From a virus: 64,000 nt of DNA. A program made the translations under genes and the position numbers. A model generated the notes under the pieces. The model was not told the DNA's origin, searched no databases, and was given only the letters and a program-made list of their open reading frames with translations. The stretch lies in the IMG/VR virus record IMGVR_UViG_3300031565_000016, positions 3,905 through 67,904 of that record; one strand, 5' to 3'. Of this stretch, positions 2,769 through 54,218 are shown piece after piece (position 1 is the first letter of the stretch; each line of letters opens with the position of its first letter).

Positions 2769-3466
2769 CCCCCAAAAAATGCGTTGCCAACAGGTGTACT
2801 ATATTCACCACCGTAGTCACTACTTAAAAACCTAACGGGCTTTTGTTCCCCCCCATTAGCATTGGGGCTTCTGCGTTGTGCATCTTTGCTGCTTTTTAAT
2901 TCTTCTGAATTTGGTCTTTTTACTTGTGTTGTTTCAATATTGGCTTCTTTAAGTTGTACTGTTTTGAATTCCTGAAATGTGATAGCAAAACCCTGCTCTT
3001 CTCCTGTTGTCCCGTCACGTTTTGCTTTTACACTGGTTATTACATAATTTTTGTATACTTTTAACCCTGTTACAATTGTAACAGGTTCAACATTTTCCCT
3101 GTAGTTTTCAAGGGCGTCAAATGTTGCCTGTGCAGCATTTTCACTTTGTGTTTTTTCTGAACCAGTTGTGCTTGCATTTGGTAAATCAGAACCAATTGAA
3201 AATGGGCCACGTGTCAACCCAAAATTGGTGATATAACCAACCATGCCACCTTTACGTAATAATTTTTCAACATGGTCTGTGAATGGTGCACCATCTTCAA
3301 CCGGGTGTGTGGTTGGCCTAACTTCCCACCCATGGCTTTCTTCCAGTAGCATGTCCCATTTAATCAATGTTTTACCTGATTCAATAGAATCAATAGTTTT
3401 TTTACGGTTACGGCCAGCAAACATTGTCTGCGGTATTGCCAATAGTGTAGCAGCAGATAAAGCCAT
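2765..3466 (-). CDS. Distal tail (Dit-like) / tail tube initiator protein
   Basis: EESH...T-x-HPVEDG...DH, VTIVTGLKVYKNYVITS, ITFQE motifs; directly after the tape measure. Confidence 0.75.
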   Translation of the reverse strand: MALSAATLLAIPQTMFAGRNRKKTIDSIESGKTLIKWDMLLEESHGWEVRPTTHPVEDGAPFTDHVEKLLRKGGMVGYITNFGLTRGPFSIGSDLPNASTTGSEKTQSENAAQATFDALENYRENVEPVTIVTGLKVYKNYVITSVKAKRDGTTGEEQGFAITFQEFKTVQLKEANIETTQVKRPNSEELKSSKDAQRRSPNANGGEQKPVRFLSSDYGGEYSTPVGNAFFGG

Positions 3467-18116: not shown

Positions 18117-18138
18117 TGGCTCTTTTTGAGCCAATTTT
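18117..18138. terminator. Hairpin terminator between convergent genes
   Basis: TGGCTC-TTTTT-GAGCCA flanked by A/T runs. Confidence 0.5.
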
Positions 18139-18953
18139 TATGCGTATAAACGGGACAAAGTAGCAATGCATTCTTTATCCCGTTTTCTAAATGGCCTTTG
18201 ATATTGTAGTTCTGCAATGCCCATATTCATTAATTGCCGTATACGTTCCCTGGTTACACCATATAATTCACCAACCTGCCCCATTGTTTTTGGTACCCCA
18301 TCAGATATACCATAATAACAATCCAAGATACTTGCATACCGTTTTGTTATCCCCCCAAGCCGTTTTTTAACATAGGCCTCAATTTCTATTAATTCAATAG
18401 CTTTATCTGGGGCATCTGTATTACTTGCCAGCTTATGATGGAGTTCTTTATCATCGCTGTCATCTTCGCTTTTTTTAATTCCGTCCAGGGACAATGTATT
18501 ATCTCTAATCTCAGTATATTCCAACAGGTGCTTTGGCCAAAGTTCCTTTGGAACATCGTCATTCACCAACTTATTCATTACACGGTGTAAATTTTGTGGA
18601 ATACGTATAATAGAACCAGAATCTTGTATTGTGCTTGTTATTTTTTGCCTTACCCACCATACGGCATATGTAATAAATTTGAAACCCTTATTTGTGTCAA
18701 AATTGTCACGGGCTTGTATAAGCCCAATAATTCCTATACTAATAAGATCTTCAAAAGCATATGGTGAATTCCTATAGGATAAGGCAACTTTTAGAACAAA
18801 CCGCAAATTTGCTGTAATTAGGAGGTCACCTGCTTTTTTATTCCCATTTTTGAATGCAGTAAATAGTTCATATTCCTGCTTTTTTGTTATTGGTTTTGTC
18901 TTTGCAATATCTTTCATGTATTTAACAAGCAATTCACTGTCAATTCTAACCAT
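18138..18953 (-). CDS. RpoD/SigA-like sigma-70 factor (regions 1.2-4)
   Basis: YMKDI, ANLRFV, DLISIG-x-x-GL, GFKFITYAVWWVRQ, IRIP, VTRERIRQL. Confidence 0.92.
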   Translation of the reverse strand: MVRIDSELLVKYMKDIAKTKPITKKQEYELFTAFKNGNKKAGDLLITANLRFVLKVALSYRNSPYAFEDLISIGIIGLIQARDNFDTNKGFKFITYAVWWVRQKITSTIQDSGSIIRIPQNLHRVMNKLVNDDVPKELWPKHLLEYTEIRDNTLSLDGIKKSEDDSDDKELHHKLASNTDAPDKAIELIEIEAYVKKRLGGITKRYASILDCYYGISDGVPKTMGQVGELYGVTRERIRQLMNMGIAELQYQRPFRKRDKECIATLSRLYA

Positions 18954-35068: not shown

Positions 35069-36496
35069 TTATTTATATAACTCGTTTCTTCCTATGTTTG
35101 TGTCATTCAAAAACCTACTGTCAACGTGCCACATACCCAAGCTTAATGCATGCAGCACAATTGCTTCACCACCTTCAACACTGCCGTCATCCCTCTCAAC
35201 CCCCTCAAACAGCCCAACACGTGCATAGCATTGCTTTTTTTCCTCTTCCCCCATGGATAGGTATATCATTTTACCAACATGTGCCAACTTTTTAAACGTT
35301 CCACCTAGTGCTTTTATTTTAATTTTTTTGCCACCATAACTATCCCTATTTCCATGTGTTGGTGCAAAAATACAGGTGTGTGTTGTCTGCGCCCATCCTG
35401 CAATATCTATCCATGTTTGCTCTTCATCTTTGTTTTCATTTCCATAATTACCCTGTGCCTGGTGCCTCATTACATCTGGGTTATCAATTACAATTAAATC
35501 AGGTATAAACCCCATTTCTTTTTCTAGTTGTTCTTTTTTACTTTTCAGCATCTGCATGGTGGCAGACCCGCGCGCAAATGTTGCAACTTTGATTTTGCCA
35601 CGTTTCTGCAATTTTAATGATTGGGCACGCTTTTTTATTTTATCTGGTTCAATAATAAGGTCGGAACTTTTTGATAGTATTTCATCATAATATATGTCAC
35701 CATCATCACCAAAGTGCGGTAATTTGCATTTTACATCAGCTTCTTTTGGCATTGCATTCAAATTTTGCCAAATACGTCTACCAAACTGCTCTTTTGTAAC
35801 TTCGAGATTGAAGTATAAAACATTTAAACCAGCGTCAAGTGCCACACTTTCAATAAAAATAGACATCCATGTTTTGCCTGCTTTCTGGGGTGCTACCATG
35901 CCAACAACATCACCACGTAGAAACCAACCAAGCACTGAGCCCAATGCACCAGGCAGCCTGAATAATCTTTCTTCTTCTATATTAAAAAATTGTGCTGTTT
36001 GTTCGTGGTCTGTGAATGGGTCGTATACATCACATTCTGTCTTTTCAACCCGTGTGAATTTTTGTAATAATTCTAGGGCATATTTTACATCTTTTGTTCT
36101 ATTTGCAATTTTTAAACTTTTTTCAAGTTCTTCTAATGCACGCCAATTGAAATATTTTATAATGTTTTCTGTGTTGTGCCCTACATTATTTATTTTATAT
36201 TTTTCTTCGTCCCCTGAAAGGCTTTCCAATATTTTTTGTATATTATTTGCAACGTCTTCATCTATGGTGTCTTTATATTTAACAAAAATACTGGTGGTGT
36301 CTGCCCCTGGTGCACAACCTGTCACATCATAGTACTCTAATAACCACCTCAAAATCTGTTCTGTATACTTATTGCTCATTAATTCTGGTTTTAAAACACT
36401 CCTGCATGCACTTAATAAATTTTCATTAGTAAGTAATTGGTACAAATAAAGGCGTTCCTCATCATAATTATGGCCTGTGTCGCGTTCTATTTTCAA
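35069..36496 (-). CDS. dnaB: Replicative DnaB-like (SF4) helicase
   Basis: APQKAGKT Walker A, LYFNLE, PDLIVID Walker B; N-terminal helical domain. Confidence 0.82.
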   Translation of the reverse strand: MKIERDTGHNYDEERLYLYQLLTNENLLSACRSVLKPELMSNKYTEQILRWLLEYYDVTGCAPGADTTSIFVKYKDTIDEDVANNIQKILESLSGDEEKYKINNVGHNTENIIKYFNWRALEELEKSLKIANRTKDVKYALELLQKFTRVEKTECDVYDPFTDHEQTAQFFNIEEERLFRLPGALGSVLGWFLRGDVVGMVAPQKAGKTWMSIFIESVALDAGLNVLYFNLEVTKEQFGRRIWQNLNAMPKEADVKCKLPHFGDDGDIYYDEILSKSSDLIIEPDKIKKRAQSLKLQKRGKIKVATFARGSATMQMLKSKKEQLEKEMGFIPDLIVIDNPDVMRHQAQGNYGNENKDEEQTWIDIAGWAQTTHTCIFAPTHGNRDSYGGKKIKIKALGGTFKKLAHVGKMIYLSMGEEEKKQCYARVGLFEGVERDDGSVEGGEAIVLHALSLGMWHVDSRFLNDTNIGRNELYK

Positions 36497-37509
36497 AATA
36501 ACCCCAAAGCATGCGCATATTTTTTTTGTTTATTTTCATCATGTATTCTGCGTAAAATATGTGCAATTACATCCACTGTCCATCCGTTTCCTATCATTTT
36601 GTAACGCTGGGTGTTACTTACACCTGCTGTGTAATTATCTGGCAGTGTTTGTAAACGCTCACATTCCAATACTGTCAATTTCCTTACATGCAAATTATCA
36701 ACTGAGTCCCACTCGTGTCTGTCGTAACTTTTATGCCCACTACTTCTCACACATTTAGATTTTTCCCTAATAGCATGGCCAACTAAAAGACCCCATTTAT
36801 CTCTGGTAACCATACTCTTTGCGTTTTCCTTATATATGGTAGCCAATAGTGTTTGTGATTTATTTTTGAATACAATTTGCCTCCTGCTTTTTTCTAAGTA
36901 GTTCCGCAGGTTGCCACCTTTCCAGTAGTTTGCATCTATGCAGTATGATTTATCCCTATCCACTACACCTTCCTCTAATATATCACAAAGTAGTATATTC
37001 TTATCTTCTGGCTGCACAACATTATTAATGTTTGTCCAGTAATATCTATTCCTGTTTTGTGCAGATACTAGGGCTGAATTAATTAAGATAGGCTGTACAT
37101 TAAAAAGGTCATCACTTATGTATTTCATAAACTCTTTCTTCATTTTAACATTTTCAAATAAGAATTTCATGTTTGGATTTTTAGATTTTATCCCTTGCCA
37201 TATGGCTATCAAGTCGTGTACTAATGCCCCTCGTGGATCAATGTCACCAGCCTGTTTCCCAGCAATACTCCAGGCCTGACACGGGAACCCAGCTAATAAT
37301 AGGTCGATACTTGAAAAATCTATGTCCCACTCTCTCCATTTAGTTACATCACCTAGTCTTATTATATCTGGGTAGTTATTACATGACACGGCTGTTGCAT
37401 ACTTATCAATCTCTGATGCATAGTAAGTACCTACTGGTATGCCCGCTCTCTCTAAAGCTACCATTCCACAACTCATGCCGTCAAATAAACTTAATACATT
37501 AGTTTTCAA
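36493..37509 (-). CDS. C5 DNA cytosine methyltransferase (orphan)
   Basis: LSLFDG (I), GFPCQ (IV), ENV (VI), QNRNR (VIII), RLQTLPD...GNGW (IX-X). Confidence 0.93.
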   Translation of the reverse strand: MKTNVLSLFDGMSCGMVALERAGIPVGTYYASEIDKYATAVSCNNYPDIIRLGDVTKWREWDIDFSSIDLLLAGFPCQAWSIAGKQAGDIDPRGALVHDLIAIWQGIKSKNPNMKFLFENVKMKKEFMKYISDDLFNVQPILINSALVSAQNRNRYYWTNINNVVQPEDKNILLCDILEEGVVDRDKSYCIDANYWKGGNLRNYLEKSRRQIVFKNKSQTLLATIYKENAKSMVTRDKWGLLVGHAIREKSKCVRSSGHKSYDRHEWDSVDNLHVRKLTVLECERLQTLPDNYTAGVSNTQRYKMIGNGWTVDVIAHILRRIHDENKQKKYAHALGLF

Positions 37510-39387: not shown

Positions 39388-40290
39388 TCATTTTATACCT
39401 GCTAATTGTTTTAATATTCTGCAATCTGTAAACCCAAGCTCGTCTGGGTCTTTCAAACTATCCCACCTTATACGCTCAGAATTTACACCCATTGCCTTAA
39501 GTTCTAGTACATGCTTCCCAGCTTTTTCCCAAGCACGTTCATCACTTGGGTCAAAAAGGAACACAACTTTATTAAATCTTTCTGCTAATTTATTTATCTG
39601 CCCGTCTGTAAGTGCAGAGCCAAAACCTGTACCAACACCCTTTCCCATTCTAAAAACGTCAAAAGCACCCTCTACAATACCAACTGTTTTACTATGCCAG
39701 TCATCCAACCCGAATATTATATCCTTATAATGTATTAAACTTTCTTCGGGTGTGGCACTCAACCAACGTTTTCTGGGGTCGGTACCCAAAACATCACGCC
39801 CCTGGTAACTCACAACGCGGTGTTCCCATGTTATCGGTATTATAACTTTATGTTCCCACCCAATATCACCACCATGTGTAAAATGCAACTGATATTTTTT
39901 TGTCAAATATTCTGGGCTGTACCCACGTGATTTCAGGTATTCTATGTGGCTTTGTCTAGGTTCTGGGTGCCCTGGCATATGCAATATAGTTGTATTTTGC
40001 CTTTTTTCTTTTATATAATGGTTTTGCCCAGAATTACCATACCCCTGCAACAGGCCAAAAGCTTCACCTTTGCCGATATTAAGTAATTCACTGATTACAT
40101 CAACATTACCAACGCCACCACATGACCAGCAGTTGTAACCGCCTGTTTTTACATCAAAACCACCAAAATACTTTGTATCACCACCTTTGTGGTTTAACCT
40201 AAACGGGCAGCATATATTCAACCAGCCAGTACTATCCTGCCTATATTGTATTCTGTAATCATTTAGAAATTTTAGTACGTTCCAAGCCAT
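39388..40290 (-). CDS. DNA primase (Zn finger plus TOPRIM)
   Basis: CPF...CWSCG, YL-x-SRG, IIPI, YQGR, IVEGAFD, FDP-x-D, KDPDE. Confidence 0.9.
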   Translation of the reverse strand: MAWNVLKFLNDYRIQYRQDSTGWLNICCPFRLNHKGGDTKYFGGFDVKTGGYNCWSCGGVGNVDVISELLNIGKGEAFGLLQGYGNSGQNHYIKEKRQNTTILHMPGHPEPRQSHIEYLKSRGYSPEYLTKKYQLHFTHGGDIGWEHKVIIPITWEHRVVSYQGRDVLGTDPRKRWLSATPEESLIHYKDIIFGLDDWHSKTVGIVEGAFDVFRMGKGVGTGFGSALTDGQINKLAERFNKVVFLFDPSDERAWEKAGKHVLELKAMGVNSERIRWDSLKDPDELGFTDCRILKQLAGIK

Positions 40291-40560: not shown

Positions 40561-40770
40561 TTAACATTCTAATTTAAATTCAGCCACGTGATTTCGTAAC
40601 CATTTTAATTTTGTTATAAAGGTTGTACCAGGTATAAAAGCTATTTCTGGTATTGCAAAACCTTCCAAAACACATTTATCTCTTAACCCACGGAGTACCA
40701 TGCCTGCGTTAGCCTCATCATTAAAGTTGCCGAACCTATTTCCAAAACCTATCATGCCAATTCTTTGCAT
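40561..40770 (-). CDS. Hypothetical protein
   Basis: 69 aa; AAGGTGG RBS after a TTTTATAATAA motif. Confidence 0.5.
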   Translation of the reverse strand: MQRIGMIGFGNRFGNFNDEANAGMVLRGLRDKCVLEGFAIPEIAFIPGTTFITKLKWLRNHVAEFKLEC

Positions 40771-40830
40771 ACTATTACCACCTTATTGATATTATTATAA
40801 AAAGAAAAGTATGAAACTTCATAATTCTGC

Positions 40831-40891
40831 AATATATATGTAACTTATATACTCTAATACTTATATACTCTGATATAATATATATATATAT
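40831..40891. other. Candidate replication origin: AT-rich tract with iteron-like repeats
   Basis: ACTTATATACTCT at 40843-40855 and 40859-40871, then an (AT)n run; upstream of the primase/helicase genes. Confidence 0.4.
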
Positions 40892-40904
40892 GCCTTTTGG
40901 AAAT

Positions 40905-41460
40905 TTTAGGTATAGCTTACCCAGACTAGTAAAAGTCTAGGCATCTGCTTCTTTTGGTGAATCCCAAGGCAAATGCTCTGTATTGATTGTGGTTTTAGCT
41001 ACCACATGGCCCTTTTTACGCACTTCACAACCTACAATACAGCCCAGTAGTGGTTGCCCACTAAAACGGTGTCATTTTGGTAGTAGCACATTATTATGCA
41101 TTATTCACCCAGCAATTGGTGACCTGCACTACTCCGCAAGTATCGACGGCCTGTCTGTAACTGCTCCGCCTGGGCCATTGTTTCAAATGCATGGTGCACA
41201 ATGACTCACAAAATGCATATCGAGCCCATTTCAGTTGCCATCACGGGTTGCAAATTGCTTAAAACTGGTATTCCGTGCCCCAGTTTCTAATGGGCATATA
41301 ATAAACGATTATTTGCTCTTTTAATCTGAAAAAATATAGTTGATAATAAGCACAACTTTTGATCTTCACTACTACTGCCGAAAGATTAGGGGGGTGTAAC
41401 CCCCCCATTCAGACGAAAAGTAGGCGTTTTGATTGTTGGGAGCAACTCCAACCGCCTATA
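40905..41460 (-). ncRNA. Putative ~550-nt multi-domain structured RNA of unknown family
   Basis: No credible ORF, GC-richer than flanks, more than 12 nested stems found by eye; TTGTATATT -10-like element ends ~6 nt before the first stem. Confidence 0.6.
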
Positions 41461-41496
41461 TTCAAATATACAACAATTAAATATACTTTGGTAGTA

Positions 41497-42042
41497 TTAT
41501 TCACCAATAAGGTAATAATATTCTGAAGTTTTTATTTCTGTGCAATCTTCAGGCATTTCACCAAGTGAACCTATACAGGGTGAAATAAGATACCCACCTA
41601 TCATTTCTTTAATAGGGCAAGATTCCCCTATTATTTTAAATCTTGCAATTTCTGTATTAATAAAGTCTGAGCCAAGTACTGTGCGAACTTTAAACCTAGG
41701 CACTTCTTTTAACGCATTTATTTCTTTTTTTAATTCTCTGCCTAGTTTTGTTTTTAATGCAGGAACCCACATTGAATTTTTTGCATCCCACCTAACACTT
41801 CTTGGTACTTTTCCATAGGTAATTGCCTGTTTTTCATCTTTTATACAGTATTCACCATTTTTACTTGCAAAACGAAAACCAGCAATACCACCAGCTAAGT
41901 AATAGGAGTTGCAAATAATTTCAGTTGCCCCCATTGATTTCCCGTAATTTAGGTTTTCGTTTTTTACCAGTTTTACATGTTTTCTGAATTGTTTTAATTT
42001 TTCAGCTGTTACACTGCCTGGTTTTGTTTTATAATACATCAT
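41497..42042 (-). CDS. Hypothetical protein
   Basis: 181 aa with AGGGG RBS. Confidence 0.6.
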   Translation of the reverse strand: MMYYKTKPGSVTAEKLKQFRKHVKLVKNENLNYGKSMGATEIICNSYYLAGGIAGFRFASKNGEYCIKDEKQAITYGKVPRSVRWDAKNSMWVPALKTKLGRELKKEINALKEVPRFKVRTVLGSDFINTEIARFKIIGESCPIKEMIGGYLISPCIGSLGEMPEDCTEIKTSEYYYLIGE

Positions 42043-42055
42043 AGTTCCCCCTAAT

Positions 42056-42691
42056 TTAATTTAATTGATTATGTTTGTAACATATACCACCTGGGTCTAC
42101 TGTATTGTCGAAAATTTCGTAAATGAAATCACGCAAATCAGCTAATGCTTTTTTTAAACGGCTTGAGTCCCAGCCCCATTTCGAAACTAATTCTAATAAA
42201 TTGTTATATGTCAACCGTAATTGTTTCCCCAAATTTGAAAGAAGCTGCCCAGATACAAGTTCACCATGTAATTTTTTTGCATCCACAGTCAATTCTGTGT
42301 AAAGCATGTTCATATCTAAGGTGCATGCTTCATCAAATGGCTCAAATTCAACCAACTCACTGTCACCATTTGCTGCGGTATTAAATATGGCATTATAATC
42401 ACTTTGCATTGCATGTTGCTTATTATATTTAAACAAAAAGGCTTTGTCCTGTTGTTTGTACCAGTACCTATAATTAAGCTTTTTAAGGTGTATTACAAGG
42501 TGTGTGATAAATTTGGCACCCTTAGTACTATCATAGCAATTAAGTGCTTCAAAGAATATTAAAACACCTTCTTGCACCATGTCCTCAAAATGTTCTTCAC
42601 TTGGTTTTAATTTCATAACTGCTTTTTTTATAGTGCCCATATATTTATTTATATCTTCACCATGTGTTGTTTTTATTTCTAAATTTTTCAT
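42056..42691 (-). CDS. Truncated phage sigma-70-like factor (region 2, no clear region 4)
   Basis: FEDMVQEG-x-L-x-FFEAL-x-x-YD-x-TKGAKFITHL. Confidence 0.78.
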   Translation of the reverse strand: MKNLEIKTTHGEDINKYMGTIKKAVMKLKPSEEHFEDMVQEGVLIFFEALNCYDSTKGAKFITHLVIHLKKLNYRYWYKQQDKAFLFKYNKQHAMQSDYNAIFNTAANGDSELVEFEPFDEACTLDMNMLYTELTVDAKKLHGELVSGQLLSNLGKQLRLTYNNLLELVSKWGWDSSRLKKALADLRDFIYEIFDNTVDPGGICYKHNQLN

Positions 42692-43904: not shown

Positions 43905-44054
43905 ATGGTTGTTTTAGTTAAATCTAAATTAGATTATCATGAAAAAGTAAAAGAACCAGAATTTAATGGTGTTAAACTAGACCCAATTTACGAAGCAAAA
44001 TGTATTGAATTTATAAAAGACAATGACATTTTATGGGTAATTGGGCACAGATAG
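43905..44054 (+). CDS. 49-aa ORF, possible C-terminal remnant of a PLP-dependent enzyme (not in ORF track)
   Basis: [49 protein letters not shown]. Confidence 0.35.
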
Positions 44055-44062
44055 GAGTAAAA

Positions 44063-45388
44063 ATGAAACAATATTTAGATTTATTGCAGCAAATAAAAGA
44101 CGAAGGAAATCAAAAGGGGGACAGAACAGGTACCGGGACGATAAGCATTTTTGGTGCTCAAATGCGGTTTGATCTTTCAAAAGGGTTCCCATTGGTAACA
44201 ACTAAAAAAGTGTTCCTAAAGGGAATTATACACGAGCTATTGTGGATTATTTCAGGAGATCCTAATATTAAGTACTTGCAGGATAATGGTGTTAATATTT
44301 GGAATGAGTGGGCTGATGAGCACGGTGATTTAGGGCCTGTATACGGCAACCGTTGGCGTAAATGGGGCAAACCTGAATCTGTTATACAAAAAAAGCCAAA
44401 ACTAAGAAAAGGTGTTAAGCCCACATACCTAGGTGTAGGTAATGGGAAAGGCAAGGAAGGGCATTGGTTAGCAAAAACCTGGGAAGGTATGATGGCACGG
44501 TGCTATGATAAAAATAGCAGTATGTATAAAAATTACGGTGGCAAAGGTGTTTCTGTTAGTGATGAATGGCTTGAGTTTATTGTGTTTGCTGAAACAGTCA
44601 AAAATATACCTGGGTATGATTTAAAAGTAAAAAACAAAAAAGCCTTTGAAGTACAGCTTGACAAAGACATAATGGGCAATGGTTTTCTCTATTCACCTGA
44701 AACTTGTATGTGGGTAAAAGCTTCTGACAATATACTCCCAACACATGAGTATACAGTGGTAAAAAATGGGGTGGAATATAAATTTACAAAATCAGTGAAA
44801 TTCTGCGAAGAACACAAAATTGAACCCAAAAACTTTTCCGACTTATGGACAGGTAACAAAAATGCTAAAAGTAGAGGTGGTTTTTCCTTTGTTTCTAAAC
44901 GCTGCTTACACCCAAAAATAGATCAATTGGCAGATGCTATACATAAAATTAAAAATAATCCAAATGATCGTAGAATTGTAGTGACAGCGTGGGATCCTTC
45001 CTATATTGAAGACATGGCCTTACCCCCATGCCATATGTTTTTTCAATTTTATGTAAATGATGGAAAGTTAAGCTGCCAAATGTACCAACGCTCTGCTGAT
45101 ATGTTCCTTGGTGTTCCTTTTAATATTGCATCCTATGCATTATTAACAATGATGGTTGCACAAGTATGTAATTTGACACCTGGTGCATTTATTCACACAA
45201 TTGGTGACGCTCATATTTATAATAACCATATAGAACAAATAACTGAGCAATTAACAAGGGAACCAAAAAAACTACCAACAATGAAAATAAACCCAGAAGT
45301 TACAGATATTGATAAGTTTAAATATAGTGATTTCGAATTAGTTGGGTATGAACACCACCCAGCAATAAAAGGCAAAGTTTCTGTATAA
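44063..45388 (+). CDS. thyA: Thymidylate synthase with in-frame HNH-type endonuclease insertion
   Basis: [33 protein letters not shown]-x-FLGVPFN, GDAHIY; start MKQY after AGGAG; 184-codon insert. Confidence 0.93.
44366..44917 (+). mobile_element. HNH-family homing-endonuclease-like domain inserted in frame in thyA
   Basis: W-x-GMMARCY...Y[20 protein letters not shown]...LDKD...YSPETC-x-WV...N, then a NUMOD/HTH-like tail. Confidence 0.78.
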
Positions 45389-46683: not shown

Positions 46684-49299
46684 ATGTCTCTTTTTGCAAC
46701 CCCAAACGATAATAAAAAAACAAAAGGTAACGCGCTGCAAGGGTGTGACGGTTGTAACTACCAATACACGGCTAAAACCCCAAAATTAAAAGTTGCGGGC
46801 AGTGGCAAAAAAGGCATAATGATTGTTATTGACACACCAAGTGAGTGTGAAGATTTGGCTGGTGAAATATTAACAGATGCAATATATCAACCATTAAAAG
46901 ATGCATTAAGGAAATATAATGCACATCCAACCAAGGATTGCTGGGTTACTACTGCTGTTCGGTGCCATTGCCCAGGCGCCAATAAAAATAATTTAACAAT
47001 AGAACAATGTGCCCCTAATTTGATTAGTGAAATTAAGCATTTAAAGCCCCGTGTGGTTATTTTAATGGGGCGTGCGGCTGTGCGTAGTGTTATTACAAGA
47101 AGGCTTACAGGCCGTTTAGCTGGAACAGCATATAATGCATTTTATGGTGAAATGATACCAGATCAAGAACTTGGTGTATGGTTGTGCCCAACATACCACC
47201 CACAAGAAATTGAAAGTACAAAAAATAAAAAGACTAATAAAGTTGACCCAGTAACATTACTACACTGGGACAGGGACATAGAATCAGCTATTGCAAAGGC
47301 AACTGAAAAAGATTATGTTTTTCCAGACCATGAACCAAAAGAAAAAGATACACGAATAATATGGAACGTAGAAGATGCCATAGATTATTTGGAACTCATG
47401 GTTGGAATATGGGCAGCTGCTGGTGAATATATTGAATTTGATTTTGAAACAAGTGGCAGAAAGCCCCAAGCTGACGGGCATTTTATAGAATGTGTATCAA
47501 TTGCAGACGATAAAGAAAGTGTTTGTATGCCGTTTTTTATTAAAAATGAAAGGTTTTGTAATGCATTTAAAGCCATAATGGTACACCCAAAAATAAGTAA
47601 AGTTGCACATAATGACCCATTTGAGGACAGCTGGGTATATTTTCGTGCTGGGTACAAACAAGTGCCATATAAAGTGGTTAATTGGGGTTGGGACACAATG
47701 CTTGCTGGACATTTCATTCACAATCAAAAACCGGTAAATCAAAAATTTTTAGTGTATGTTAATTATGGTGTACTTAATTATGATGAAGACATTGCTCATT
47801 TTTTAGAAAGCGACAATGAAGGTGATTGTAATGCCTTTAACACAATAGACAAGGCACCAAAACCAAAATTGTATAATTACTGCGCATTGGATTCTTTTTT
47901 CTGCCGAAAATTACGTAAAATGCAGCAAAAGTGGTTATCACAACACCCACACCTTGATTTCCTATTTTTGTTAGAGGGTCAAATGGAGGCCTGCAGCGAA
48001 CTTCACATACAGGGGCAATATTTTGACATAGAGCATGCTATAACCCAAAAAGTACAAATAGAAGAAGAAATAAAAGAAAGAATTGAAAAACTTCTTTTAG
48101 GTGAATTTGGCCAAGGGTGGAACGGAAAAACAGGTGGTAAAAACCTATATAACCATGTGTATAACACACTGGGGCTTAAAAATATAGATAAAAAACAAGC
48201 TGGAACAGGTAAAAGTGGGAAACAAGCACTCGACATTGAAGTTATGGAAAAAATGGATCACCCATTCACTAAAGAACTATTAGAAATTAAAAAATTGGAA
48301 AAAATAGTCGGCACTTACTTAGACGGGTACCTCCGTGAATGTGTTAATGGGAAAGTTCACCCATTTTATAAATTGCTGACAAAAACATTACGGGGGAACA
48401 GCAGTAACCCAAATGCACAAAATGTTCCAAAGCATAATAAAAAAATTAAAAATATAATAAGAAGTTGTATTAGGCCAGGGGAAGGCCGTAGGTTCATGGC
48501 CTGGGATTACAAAGCACTTGAAACAATGATTGCTGCCTGTAATTACCCAGATAAAAACTGGATATCCTATGCCTCAGACTTAACCAGTGACATGCATTGG
48601 GATTGGTGCACTAATTTATTTGAACTGGAGAATGATTTCATTGAAGTTCTAATTGAGGAATCAGTGCGTGGTGAGGTTAGACAATTAACTAAAGGGGGTG
48701 CTGTATTCCCCGGAATCTATGGCTCATCCTCATTCAGTATTGCCCACAGTTTATATAAAGACATGAAACAAATACCAACAATGTGGGATTATTTTAGATC
48801 TAAAGGTTGGGATAATATTAAAAATTTCACGGAACATGTAGTTGAAAAATACAAATGGTACTGGGGGGAGTGGTTCCCCGAATACAGAAATTTAAGGGAA
48901 GCTGATTATGAAAAATACTTAATAGATGGCTATACAGACACACTCAATGGGTGCAGGTACCAAGGGCCAATGGGGTACACAGAATTTTGTAATTGGAAGA
49001 CACAAGGCCCCGCAAGCCACATAAAATTGTGGACAATGGCGCAAGTTAATAAGGAAATAAGGGAAGAGGGTATGGGTAGCATGTTAGCCTGGGAAATACA
49101 TGATGAACTTGCTGCTTCGGTTCCTTCTGGTGAAGAAGATGAATTAAATAGAATTGTAAACTATTGGGGAACAACTGGTGTTATGGAGCACTGGAAATGG
49201 ATTATTGTACCTTTAGTACTAGACGGTGAAATGAGTGAAATTAATGGTGATTGGTCTGTAATGACTGGGTTTGATGTTAATAGTAATTGTATTGCGTAG
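46684..49299 (+). CDS. polA: Family A DNA polymerase with N-terminal UDG family 4-like domain and 3'-5' exonuclease
   Basis: CxxC...VRC...QC...TYHP (UDG-like); FDFET, HN-x-x-FE, YCALD (exo); SSNPNAQN, DY-x-x-LE, R-x-x-x-K...YG, IHDE (pol). Confidence 0.9.
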   Translation: MSLFATPNDNKKTKGNALQGCDGCNYQYTAKTPKLKVAGSGKKGIMIVIDTPSECEDLAGEILTDAIYQPLKDALRKYNAHPTKDCWVTTAVRCHCPGANKNNLTIEQCAPNLISEIKHLKPRVVILMGRAAVRSVITRRLTGRLAGTAYNAFYGEMIPDQELGVWLCPTYHPQEIESTKNKKTNKVDPVTLLHWDRDIESAIAKATEKDYVFPDHEPKEKDTRIIWNVEDAIDYLELMVGIWAAAGEYIEFDFETSGRKPQADGHFIECVSIADDKESVCMPFFIKNERFCNAFKAIMVHPKISKVAHNDPFEDSWVYFRAGYKQVPYKVVNWGWDTMLAGHFIHNQKPVNQKFLVYVNYGVLNYDEDIAHFLESDNEGDCNAFNTIDKAPKPKLYNYCALDSFFCRKLRKMQQKWLSQHPHLDFLFLLEGQMEACSELHIQGQYFDIEHAITQKVQIEEEIKERIEKLLLGEFGQGWNGKTGGKNLYNHVYNTLGLKNIDKKQAGTGKSGKQALDIEVMEKMDHPFTKELLEIKKLEKIVGTYLDGYLRECVNGKVHPFYKLLTKTLRGNSSNPNAQNVPKHNKKIKNIIRSCIRPGEGRRFMAWDYKALETMIAACNYPDKNWISYASDLTSDMHWDWCTNLFELENDFIEVLIEESVRGEVRQLTKGGAVFPGIYGSSSFSIAHSLYKDMKQIPTMWDYFRSKGWDNIKNFTEHVVEKYKWYWGEWFPEYRNLREADYEKYLIDGYTDTLNGCRYQGPMGYTEFCNWKTQGPASHIKLWTMAQVNKEIREEGMGSMLAWEIHDELAASVPSGEEDELNRIVNYWGTTGVMEHWKWIIVPLVLDGEMSEINGDWSVMTGFDVNSNCIA

Positions 49300-53060: not shown

Positions 53061-54218
53061 ATGGCAAGAGCCAGAAAATTAAGCGATAAAAGAAGAAAAA
53101 GGGGGGAAGAAGCAGTTGGATCAGACGGAATAGGTCAAAGTGTTGGTGGGCACTCTGCCCTTCAGGGCATCCCATTCCCACGGTATGACGTACAGCAGGG
53201 GAAAAACACACTTGACGTAATACCCTATTATATTTCCAACAAAGAACACCCCCATATTTTAAAAGATGTGAATGATTTGGATTGTCTAGAATTCAATGTT
53301 GATGTTAATGTGCACCGAAGTGTTGGTGATGACAAAGTTAATTTCATTTGTTTAAAAGACGCAGGTATACAGCCCACATGTTTTTTATGCAATGAAATGT
53401 GGGATATTTGGAAAAATGCTGGGGGCAAGGGCGCTGACAAAAAAAGTAAAGAATATGGTAGATTTAGTTCATTACGTCCAAGCAGACGTTGGTTTATTTT
53501 TGTAAGACCAACAACAGGGGCACAAGCTGGCCAGATATGTTACTGGGATGCACCATATGCTGGCAAAAGTGCAGCATGGGGAAAACAACTTGAGAATAAA
53601 ATAGCAATATTAAAATCAGAAGAGGGTCGTGTTATTGATTACCAAAGCCTTGACTTGGATGGGTGCTCTATTGAATTTAGAGCCGACAAAGAAGAAAAGG
53701 CGAATTGGTTTGATTATAGCGAATTCAATTTCCCTGCACGTACCATACCTGTGACAGACGATCTTGTTGAAAGTATGCCAGATTTGAGCACTTTTATGGT
53801 TAAATGCACAAACGAAGAAATGGAAGCTTATTACATGGATGGTATAATACCTGGTTCATTTAAAAAGGGTTCTTCCAAACCAAGTGCAACAGTTTCCACC
53901 ACGCCAACATCAGAGCCAGAAGAGTATACTGGGCCAACAGCAACAAAAACAATGAGGGAAGACACACCAACACCAGAACCTGCACCAGAACCTGCACCAA
54001 CACCAGAACCTGCACCAGAACCTGCACCAACACCAGAACCTGCACCAGAACCTGCACCTGCACCAACACCAGAACCTGCACCAGAACCTGCACCTGCAAA
54101 TACAGGCGATTGCCCACGAGGTAGAAATTTTGGGCCAGACTACCGTGGGTGTGAACACAAAAAAGGTTGCCCTGTTGTTAATGAGTGTTATGCTGCAAAA
54201 AAAGCTGTGGCAAAGTAG
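53061..54218 (+). CDS. Single-stranded DNA-binding protein (gp32-like) with PEPA linker
   Basis: VH...FIC...CFLC Zn site, P-x-RRW-x-I-x-V; low-complexity tail ending in a Cys4 module. Confidence 0.68.
   Translation: MARARKLSDKRRKRGEEAVGSDGIGQSVGGHSALQGIPFPRYDVQQGKNTLDVIPYYISNKEHPHILKDVNDLDCLEFNVDVNVHRSVGDDKVNFICLKDAGIQPTCFLCNEMWDIWKNAGGKGADKKSKEYGRFSSLRPSRRWFIFVRPTTGAQAGQICYWDAPYAGKSAAWGKQLENKIAILKSEEGRVIDYQSLDLDGCSIEFRADKEEKANWFDYSEFNFPARTIPVTDDLVESMPDLSTFMVKCTNEEMEAYYMDGIIPGSFKKGSSKPSATVSTTPTSEPEEYTGPTATKTMREDTPTPEPAPEPAPTPEPAPEPAPTPEPAPEPAPAPTPEPAPEPAPANTGDCPRGRNFGPDYRGCEHKKGCPVVNECYAAKKAVAK
53965..54097 (+). repeat. Coding tandem repeat (TPEPAPEPAP)n
   Basis: About four 30-36-nt units of CCAACACCAGAACCTGCACCAGAACCTGCA. 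Confidence 0.9.

Follow-up and report, generated by a model that had tools for sequence, protein, structure and literature searches.

Identification of a probable large structured RNA element in an uncultured phage

In the present study we analysed a 64,000-nt stretch of viral DNA (hereafter the window: bases 3905-67904 of the 67.9-kb IMG/VR virus record IMGVR_UViG_3300031565_000016, estimated to be approx. 69% complete), in which positions 41459-40905 of the minus strand appear to constitute the gene for a new family of large folded non-coding RNA, approx. 550 nt long and built around a core of 341 nt. The element contains no protein-coding gene, is conserved in related phages at a single copy per genome, shows covariation and strand-specific folding, and matches no Rfam family. 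That it represents a real RNA structure maintained by selection seems to us highly probable. Its mode of action is a separate matter, for which several explanations of differing likelihood are weighed below.

The element occupies a gap in otherwise densely coding DNA, which an earlier note, prepared from the letters of this stretch, had estimated at approx. 720 bp. The gene-free gap measures 726 bp (40771-41496) and is bounded by open reading frames (ORFs) of the minus strand at 40561-40770 and 41497-42042. Its central part is relatively rich in G+C (0.475-0.48 at 41000-41299, vs 0.275-0.345 in the flanks). The same note had described the gap as filled with nested inverted repeats, and this pattern exceeds chance, as judged from shuffled sequences, the G+C contrast and compensatory changes in two homologues. 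The individual repeats that it listed are all present: TAGGCG 41421/CGCCTA 41453, TCTGAA 41325/TTCAGA 41408 (with G6-TGTAA-C7 at 41389-41406), the two ATGCAT sites at 41187 and 41213, GCCCAG 41042/CTGGGC 41170, TAGTGG-TTGC-CCACTA at 41047, CTGTATTG 40978/CAATACAG 41035, and CCAGACT/AGTCTAGG near 40921. The pair GCCCATT 41224/AATGGGC 41289 also exists, but as a helix it is less well supported than the overlapping stem CCCGU/AUGGG, which covaries.

The note had proposed either a folded primer RNA for the phage polymerase or an undescribed large non-coding RNA, and had recognised no known family in it. The second of these readings is supported by the present results. Comparison with Rfam 15 yielded no gathering match in the whole window. 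Within 40700-41600 eight weak matches were obtained (E 0.94-8.2; 16-24 bits, against gathering scores of 34-78), and the homologues gave two, both with E >= 2.5. None of these is a credible match to a family, in the window or in its homologues. No description of this RNA was found in the literature searched, which included PMC10690425 and a 2026 bioRxiv preprint; the supplementary candidate lists of PMC10690425, which lay outside that search, could hold some of its sub-hairpins.

Conservation of the element and absence of coding capacity

Relatives of the window phage were reached through its primase, and the resulting set of homologues comprises three phages: the window phage and two further IMG/VR viruses, designated L002 and L195. 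The primase of L002 (also represented by L151 and L194) is 72% identical to that of the window phage, and the record has a length of 74 kb and is 88% complete; the primase of L195 (also L274) is 65% identical, and its 68-kb record is complete, with terminal repeats. In both, the element is found at the same place, between a gene for a sigma-like protein and the small-protein and primase genes. A covariance model of 341 positions, built from the core (R1), scored 378.9, 357.9 and 308.3 bits in the three phages, with exactly one copy in each record.

At the DNA level, identity of the core (40973-41300) amounts to 77.4% with L002 and, in two segments, to 74% and 88% with L195. The corresponding values for the neighbouring genes are 67-75.5% (L002) and 65-68% (L195), those for primase, SNF2 and DnaB being 68-75.5% and 65-68%. 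Non-coding DNA is thus conserved better than essential genes, from which we conclude that the core is under selection.

A protein-coding gene, including one with recoded stops, was considered as the source of this conservation and rejected. All six frames carry TAA, TAG and TGA stops, the longest stop-free run has 87 codons, the core differs from that of L002 by insertions or deletions of 2, 1, 1 and 1 nt, and mismatches to L002 are distributed over the codon positions as 35/28/23, i.e. without third-position bias. The chance ORFs of the gap did not align between the phages, and none of them matched a Pfam family better than E = 0.083. The element accordingly contains no conserved reading frame.

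Folding, covariation and strand

The thermodynamic stability of the element was compared with that of shuffled sequences, as the earlier note had suggested. For the minus strand of 40900-41475 a folding energy of -169.4 kcal/mol (z = -2.43) was obtained, a value reached by 1 of 100 shuffles; that of the plus strand (z = -1.14) was matched by 13 of 100. Both homologues also beat shuffled sequence (z = -2.48 and -4.47, 0 of 100 shuffles in each case).

Covariation among the syntenic relatives, another check proposed in the note, was assessed on the three-sequence alignment A4. RNAalifold predicted 119 pairs, and in 37 of these both sides change. Shuffled alignments yielded 16.3 +/- 3.2 such double-sided changes (none of 500 reached 37) and six slid controls yielded 3-6. 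In an independent count, 89.5% of the cells were paired, vs 80.0% +/- 1.4 in shuffles. Clear compensations are (i) AGGCG/CGCCU, which becomes GAGUG/CACUC and AAGCA/UGCUU, in the first stem, (ii) GGCGG/CCGUC to GGGGG/CCCCC, (iii) CUGUAUUG/CAAUACAG to CUGAAUUG/CAAUUCAG, and (iv) CCCGU/AUGGG to CCCCU/AGGGG and CCUCU/AGGGG. A pseudoknot scan across the three sequences returned only weak, competing candidates, and no pseudoknot supported by covariation.

The pairing is asymmetric with respect to strand. In the core, standard pairs account for 225 of 243 cells on the minus strand, including 31 G-U cells, vs 199 of 243, with 5 G-U, in the mirror structure of the plus strand. Independent alifold runs gave energies of -47.55 (sense) vs -33.32 (antisense), and when the copies are folded singly, the sense strand is the more stable in two of the three. 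The G-U pairs and the folding energy of the alignment therefore point to the minus strand of the window as the predicted sense strand.

These observations bear on the possibility that the element acts as DNA, i.e. as cruciform repeats, a recombination or packaging site, a decayed gene or the remnant of a mobile element. Inverted repeats are, of course, equally present in DNA, and a 19-mer of the core (GCCCATTAGAAACTGGGGC, 41277-41295, minus strand) recurs unchanged in the 3' end of an apparent transposase gene. A genome scan with this 19-mer returned 26 stretches (L168-L193), mostly from Chitinophaga and some from Flavobacteriaceae; the one that was read (L187) encodes ...MPIRNWG... and falls within the 3' part of a transposase-like gene, which we take from this peptide to be IS256-like. 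However, the DNA match to the bacterial loci extends over only 21-49 nt, and the Transposase_mut domain (PF00872) gave no match at E <= 10 in the phage record, even with stops read through; the remnant of an IS256-family transposase was rejected on these grounds. By our own arithmetic, approx. 4 chance hits of a 19-mer are expected in 596 Gb, and a single hit within a multi-copy element multiplies. We judge the match to be such a chance event, multiplied by a repeated element, since it covers only 21-49 nt and the phage is devoid of the transposase domain. With the excess of G-U cells on one strand, the alifold energies and the pairs kept by compensatory changes all speaking for RNA, a role at the DNA level is very improbable.

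Anatomy of the predicted RNA

The putative RNA, whose ends were placed at approx. 41459 and 40905, is predicted to fold into at least twelve helices. The main structural features are presented in Table 1, together with the flanking sites and genes.

Table 1. Predicted structural features of the RNA, and neighbouring sites and genes, in minus-strand order
Feature	Position in window	Strand	Remarks
334-aa ORF	upstream end of the neighbourhood	-	
Protein with sigma-70 region 2 only (211 aa)	42056-42691	-	next to the RNA, with the 181-aa ORF in between
181-aa ORF	41497-42042	-	directly 5' of the gap
-10-like hexamer TATATT	41465-41470	-	6 nt before H1; predicted start near 41459
Stem-loop H1: outer AUAGGCG/CGCCUAC, inner hairpin GUUGG..CCAAC, A-rich internal loop	41420-41459	-	
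Stem-loop H2: G-run/C-run hairpin, then UAAUCUUUC	41389-41406	-	G/C hairpin in all three copies
Variable AT-rich linker (approx. 90 nt) joining the 5' hairpins to the core	41300-41388	-	columns 112-210 of A4, poorly conserved
Conserved core (341 nt)	40960-41300	-	basis of model R1
Hairpin GAAACUGG/CCAGUUUU, loop GGC-NNNN-AAUA	41261-41287	-	
Stem CCCGU/AUGGG carrying UGAUG-GCAA-CUGA	41225-41247	-	
Stem GGCGG/CCGUC closing an 18-nt conserved loop (AGCAGUUACAGACAGG)	41145-41170	-	
Long central hairpin (GGAGUAGUGCA ... UGUGCUACUACC) with inner GGUCACC/GGGUGA hairpin	41079-41135	-	
CC...GG stem around UUAGUGG-GCAA-CCACUA	41043-41069	-	GNRA loop
Stem CUGUAUUG/CAAUACAG enclosing GGUU..GGCC, invariant UGUGAAGU..GUAAA and a variable hairpin	40978-41042	-	
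Two or three 3' hairpins (UUGG/CCAA; UGCCUAGACU/AGUCUGGGUA; GGUA..UACC)	40905-40967	-	conservation stops here
AT-rich spacer	40795-40900	unassigned	(AT)n at 40873-40891; two 16-nt direct repeats at 40843-40874
69-aa protein gene, no known family	40561-40770	-	first gene after the RNA
84-aa ORF	after the 69-aa ORF, before the primase	-	
DnaG-like primase	39388-40290	-	
SNF2 helicase, then C5 cytosine methylase, then DnaB-like helicase	downstream of the primase	-	

The helices differ in the way they are conserved. In H1, both sides change in 5 of the 7 pairs of the outer stem and in 2 of the 5 pairs of the inner stem. Within the stem CUGUAUUG/CAAUACAG, the outer part of which is paired in all cells, this applies to 2 of 8 outer and 2 of 5 inner pairs; the stem GGCGG/CCGUC changes on both sides at one pair (L195), and CCCGU/AUGGG covaries through G-U to C-G and C-G to U-G replacements. 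The helix GAAACUGG/CCAGUUUU is conserved without covariation, since 7 of its 8 pairs are invariant in the three sequences. In the 3' hairpins (helices 18 and 19) 83-85% of the cells are paired.

Two of the hairpins have kept their place rather than their sequence. The central hairpin lies at the same position in all three copies, its stems being unrelated (GGAGUAGUGCA.., GGGGCAGC.. and GCUGAAG..), and it was missed by MAFFT/alifold. At the position of the GNRA-capped hairpin 41043-41069, L195 carries another hairpin (UCCAGA..UUUGGA) without a GNRA loop, so that the capped form occurs in two of the three copies.

The motif borne by the CCCGU/AUGGG stem reads UGAUGGCAACUGA in the window and in L002, and UGAAGGCAACUGA in L195. 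Its UGAUG-GCAA-CUGA arrangement (UGAAG in L195) was kept in all three copies, with the bulge read as a single A on the 3' strand. It may form tandem G-A/A-G pairs of the box C/D-like type capped by a GNRA loop, the non-canonical pairs being deduced from the sequence. We call it a tandem G-A motif rather than a kink-turn, because of the single bulged A in place of the canonical 3-nt bulge. Such a motif, together with the GNRA loops and the long invariant unpaired blocks, may be likened to those of RNAs that have tertiary structure or protein partners.

Promoter-like sites and the proposed mode of action

A -10-like element of the minus strand, noticed earlier just before the first stem, is indeed present and is column-aligned in all three copies (A4 columns 28-33): TATATT in the window, TATACT in L002 and TATAAT in L195. 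In the homologues it forms part of a sigma-70-like site, namely GTAACA-17-TATACT in L002 (9 of 12 matches) and TTGCTA-18-TATAAT in L195 (10 of 12 matches), in each case the only such site in the region.

The explanation that we favour, and put forward as a tentative leading candidate, is that of a stand-alone folded RNA. Transcription would start from a sigma-70-like promoter, with 6 nt between its -10 element and the first stem, and the RNA would adopt its twelve or more helices, stabilised jointly by conserved junctions, by GNRA loops and by the tandem G-A motif. The folded molecule would then act itself, most likely as a protein-bound scaffold or decoy, early in infection and beside the replication genes of the same strand; we infer an action in trans, and any protein partner is putative. 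Since no terminator follows the RNA, it may be cut from a longer transcript; unless processed in this way, it probably continues into the downstream genes. The stand-alone reading fits best because of the ornate architecture with its conserved loops, and because the RNA tolerates a gene inserted downstream.

Several observations weigh against this explanation. The family is represented by only three related sequences and the structure was scored on the alignment that had produced it, for which reason the covariation counts show consistency and not formal significance. The antisense strand of L002 folds slightly better than its sense strand (-103.3 vs -97.8). The window copy has no match to a -35 element, and a full promoter site was not called there. 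Moreover, a terminator-like site after the last conserved hairpin was found in none of the three copies, and the genes downstream share the strand of the RNA, an arrangement at least equally compatible with a leader or an origin transcript.

If it acted as a giant 5' leader, the RNA would form the untranslated head of the mRNA of the replication operon. It would control this operon in cis, for example through the binding of a phage protein, or through a modification of RNA polymerase that allows read-through into the 69-aa, primase and helicase genes. The promoter-like site at its 5' end, the shared strand and the lack of a terminator-like site at the 3' end in all three copies agree with such a role, and replication proteins of phage T4 provide a precedent, as they bind structured leaders of their own mRNAs. 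Stem-loop H2 with its U-containing tail falls within the predicted transcript and could serve as an attenuator; it is terminator-like in the window and in L002, but not in L195. (For the same reason, and because it is located downstream of the promoter-like site, H2 was rejected as a plain terminator of the upstream gene.) A length of approx. 550 nt with a 341-nt core far exceeds that of the leaders known to us. Furthermore, approx. 130 nt of unconserved AT-rich DNA separate the RNA from the next start codon in the window, and in L195 tandem repeats and a whole endonuclease gene lie in between. By eye, without computation, no conserved base pairing of the RNA with the ribosome-binding site downstream was seen. 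On balance, we regard a leader function as unlikely.

The spacer and repeats downstream of the RNA

The AT-rich spacer that follows the RNA may be a promoter/operator or an origin element, perhaps outside the RNA itself. The (AT)n tract and the two repeats mentioned in the earlier note, upstream of the primase, SNF2 and DnaB genes, are all present, but the case for an "iteron tract" is weak in the window, which has only two copies of a 16-mer. A 13-mer of the spacer occurs nowhere else in the window without mismatches; two-copy repeats of similar score are found elsewhere in it. At the same place L002 carries two 17-nt repeats (76% alike), and L195 four perfect and one partial copies of a 15-mer (3019-3093), an array which in the complete genome of L195 (G002) is the only place with fewer than two mismatches to the 15-mer. 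Short tandem repeats thus follow the RNA in all three phages, their sequences being unrelated between the phages.

In L195 the repeats are followed by a homing-endonuclease gene (3009/3094-3668, plus strand; phrog_314, E = 9.6e-21), which precedes the small-protein gene. Since this gene lies between them, the RNA need not abut the start of the next gene.

The repeats speak for an origin transcript, i.e. an RNA that, made from its own promoter, enters AT-rich repeat DNA, where a persistent RNA-DNA hybrid opens or primes the origin, with the fold placing the 3' part. Apart from the repeats and the spacer, this alternative is favoured by (i) the promoter-like site just before the first stem and the absence of a terminator-like site, (ii) the position of the endonuclease gene of L195 after the repeats, so that RNA and repeats remain together, (iii) the location of the element at the head of the primase/SNF2/DnaB module, (iv) the family-A polymerase of the phage, with its uracil-DNA-glycosylase and exonuclease domains, and (v) the length of the RNA (approx. 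550 nt), which matches that of ColE1 RNA II. On the other side, there are no more than two repeat copies in either the window or L002, comparable repeats exist elsewhere in the window, the repeat sequences are not shared between phages, and an initiator protein was not identified. The strongest conservation is observed in unpaired blocks of the core, far from the 3' end, which a simple primer would not need. The cumulative GC-skew, an analysis proposed in the earlier note, showed no inflection at 40.9 kb: its minimum lies at approx. 44 kb, at the switch in gene direction, and the region of 42-44 kb, which contains this minimum, also has the lowest G+C content. The skew is confounded here with the direction of transcription. 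We consider an origin transcript unlikely, though marginally less so than a leader.

In its most specific form, this alternative makes the element a counterpart of RNA II: the fold would set the 3' part of the RNA on the AT-rich repeats, the phage polymerase (uracil-DNA glycosylase, exonuclease and family-A polymerase) would start the leading strand there, and the 69-aa protein would be a cofactor. This, too, we hold to be rather unlikely. We know of no ornate primer RNA supported by covariation at any phage origin and, if the proposal is true, this would be the first one known to us.

The endonuclease gene of L195 also recalls a known catalytic or mobile RNA missed by Rfam, such as a group I intron. 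The size of the element and its context of phage DNA metabolism would suit an intron, and the loop GUUACAGAC resembles what we take to be part of the group I "R" element. However, no group I or group II match was obtained at E <= 10 in the 901-nt region or at E <= 5 in the homologues. There are no exons: the upstream neighbour is the 181-aa gene in the window and L002, and the sigma-like gene in L195. In addition, the downstream gene is equipped with a Shine-Dalgarno sequence and a start codon of its own, and a promoter-like site is located at the 5' end of the RNA. A group I intron was rejected for lack of a family-model match, the differing upstream neighbours and the independent start of the downstream gene, and a missed catalytic RNA of any known kind is hardly credible.

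Distribution of the RNA

Searches for further members of the family were performed at several levels. The GenBank phage collection gave no match with the DNA of the element (blastn). Among the primase-related loci of IMG/VR, of which 80 of 192 were examined, the RNA was detected by blastn in two, L002 and L195. R1 did not match the 78 more distant loci, and nhmmer with a three-sequence profile made no real addition in the primase-related loci beyond those already selected by patterns. A crude screen of the 80 loci for gene-free gaps before the primase identified a sole G+C-rich gap (L232), which is full of small genes; the screen missed both RNA-bearing loci because chance ORFs covered their gaps.

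Pattern scans led to the same two phages. Two scans of IMG/VR with patterns made from positions invariant in all three sequences returned only the contigs of L002 and L195. The 18-mer of the G/C hairpin found 5 loci, all unrelated, and GGCCCAGGCGGAGCA at least 119 stretches, which are chance matches; with TTGTAGGTTGTGAAGT, 40 stretches were obtained, the only real one being the L002 contig (L138 and L146 are coding DNA). A pattern scan of metagenomes gave one unrelated contig, the pattern block itself not being conserved in L195.

The proteins encoded near the element are similarly restricted. Among 5.8 billion proteins, 8 relatives of the primase were found at E <= 1e-10, and the 69-aa protein forms only 4 clusters, which shows that the RNA belongs to a rare clade of uncultured phages with genomes of approx. 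68-74 kb. These relatives include P0003 and P0004, with primase identities of 54% and 49%, and P0012, a homologue of the 69-aa protein encoded on a contig of 1,270 nt. The 181-aa neighbour gave no match in tblastn, and its gene is absent from L195, where the RNA comes almost immediately after the sigma-like gene.

The 69-aa gene accompanies the RNA in all three phages and occurs in none of the 78 other primase-related loci. In the distant loci L199/L200 (3493-3966), L218 and L273 a sigma-like gene lies upstream of the primase without the RNA or the 69-aa gene; in L199/L200 it ends approx. 35 nt before the primase. On this comparison, the RNA and the 69-aa gene look like a clade-specific module or insertion.

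Gene neighbourhood and other features of the phage

Genes are located on the minus strand to the left of approx. 43.8 kb, and on the plus strand from 44.0 kb on. Beyond this switch, the phage encodes a thymidylate synthase, a clamp-like processivity factor, a polymerase, a clamp loader, a UvsX/RecA-like recombinase and a resolvase. The DNA polymerase (46684-49299, plus strand) is a fusion of uracil-DNA-glycosylase-superfamily, 3'-5' exonuclease and family-A polymerase domains. The primase finds at best 23-28% identity in the GenBank phage collection (tblastn), which indicates that the window phage is far from any cultured phage. ARAGORN found no tRNA or tmRNA in the whole window, and an RNA of either type was rejected as an identity of the element.

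Several other features of the genome deserve mention. The phage has two sigma-like proteins: one of 271 aa with regions 2 and 4 (18138-18953, minus strand) and that of 42056-42691 (minus strand), which has region 2 only. The gene for the C5 cytosine DNA methylase (36493-37509, minus strand) splits the SNF2 and DnaB genes in the window phage only, these being adjacent in L002 and L195. The thymidylate synthase (44033-45388, plus strand; 451 aa) has Pfam domain matches in two stretches, and its residues approx. 140-279 (approx. 140 aa) match HNH homing-endonuclease families of PHROGs. This segment looks like an in-frame endonuclease insertion; it could be an intein, although a Hint domain was not among the reported matches. 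Finally, a tandem repeat of 12/18/30 nt (53965-54098, plus strand; approx. 4-10 copies, unit CACCAGAACCTG) is located within a 385-aa ORF of no known family (53061-54218) and is probably a repetitive linker of the protein.

Comparison with known systems

The region downstream of the RNA shares with the iteron origins of the lambda ori type the presence of short direct repeats and an AT-rich tract beside replication genes. Unlike those origins, it has only two repeat copies in the window and in L002, lacks an identified initiator gene, and carries repeats that are unrelated among the three phages.

ColE1 RNA II, approx. 555 nt long, depends on a correct fold; the polymerase that extends it belongs to family A, as does that of the window phage. 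Together with the R-loops of the T4 origins oriF and oriG, RNA II offers the parallel of a promoter-driven transcript that runs into an AT-rich region beside replication functions. There is no sequence relation between these RNAs and the present one, and the GC skew does not point here. Unlike in ColE1, neither an antisense partner of the RNA I type nor a G-rich/C-rich anchor was seen by eye, without a dedicated search, and reading of the sequence revealed no G-run near the 3' end of the RNA.

Among non-coding RNAs, the element resembles ROOL, GOLLD and OLE in being several hundred nucleotides long, composed of multiple helices and highly conserved. OLE RNA is encoded within an operon and has a kink-turn to which a protein binds. 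None of these families was matched in Rfam 15, nor were group I and II introns, RNase P, tmRNA, 6S or pRNA, and the present family differs from ROOL, GOLLD and OLE in being tiny, with three genomes found.

ROOL and GOLLD are described as phage- or prophage-encoded RNAs of several hundred nucleotides, of unknown function and "often near tRNA islands"; the length of ROOL env-120 is 659 nt, and that of many GOLLD members is above 800 nt (PMC12286853). The RNA described here, by contrast, heads a replication module in a window without tRNA genes. A set of 8,495 candidates predicted from IMG/VR consists of short RNAs, on average 67 nt long (PMC10690425).

Large, intricately folded non-coding RNAs are rare, and ROOL, GOLLD, OLE and raiA each opened structural and biological questions. 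The orphan large phage RNAs ROOL and GOLLD are the closest kind to the RNA of the window phage, which seems to be a new family within a known kind: it shares the kind, but neither sequence nor context. This context, i.e. a promoter-like site, a position heading the replication genes, short tandem repeats nearby and a 69-aa protein inherited along with the RNA, is a different one, and it yields concrete hypotheses, namely origin priming, operon control and a protein-bound scaffold.

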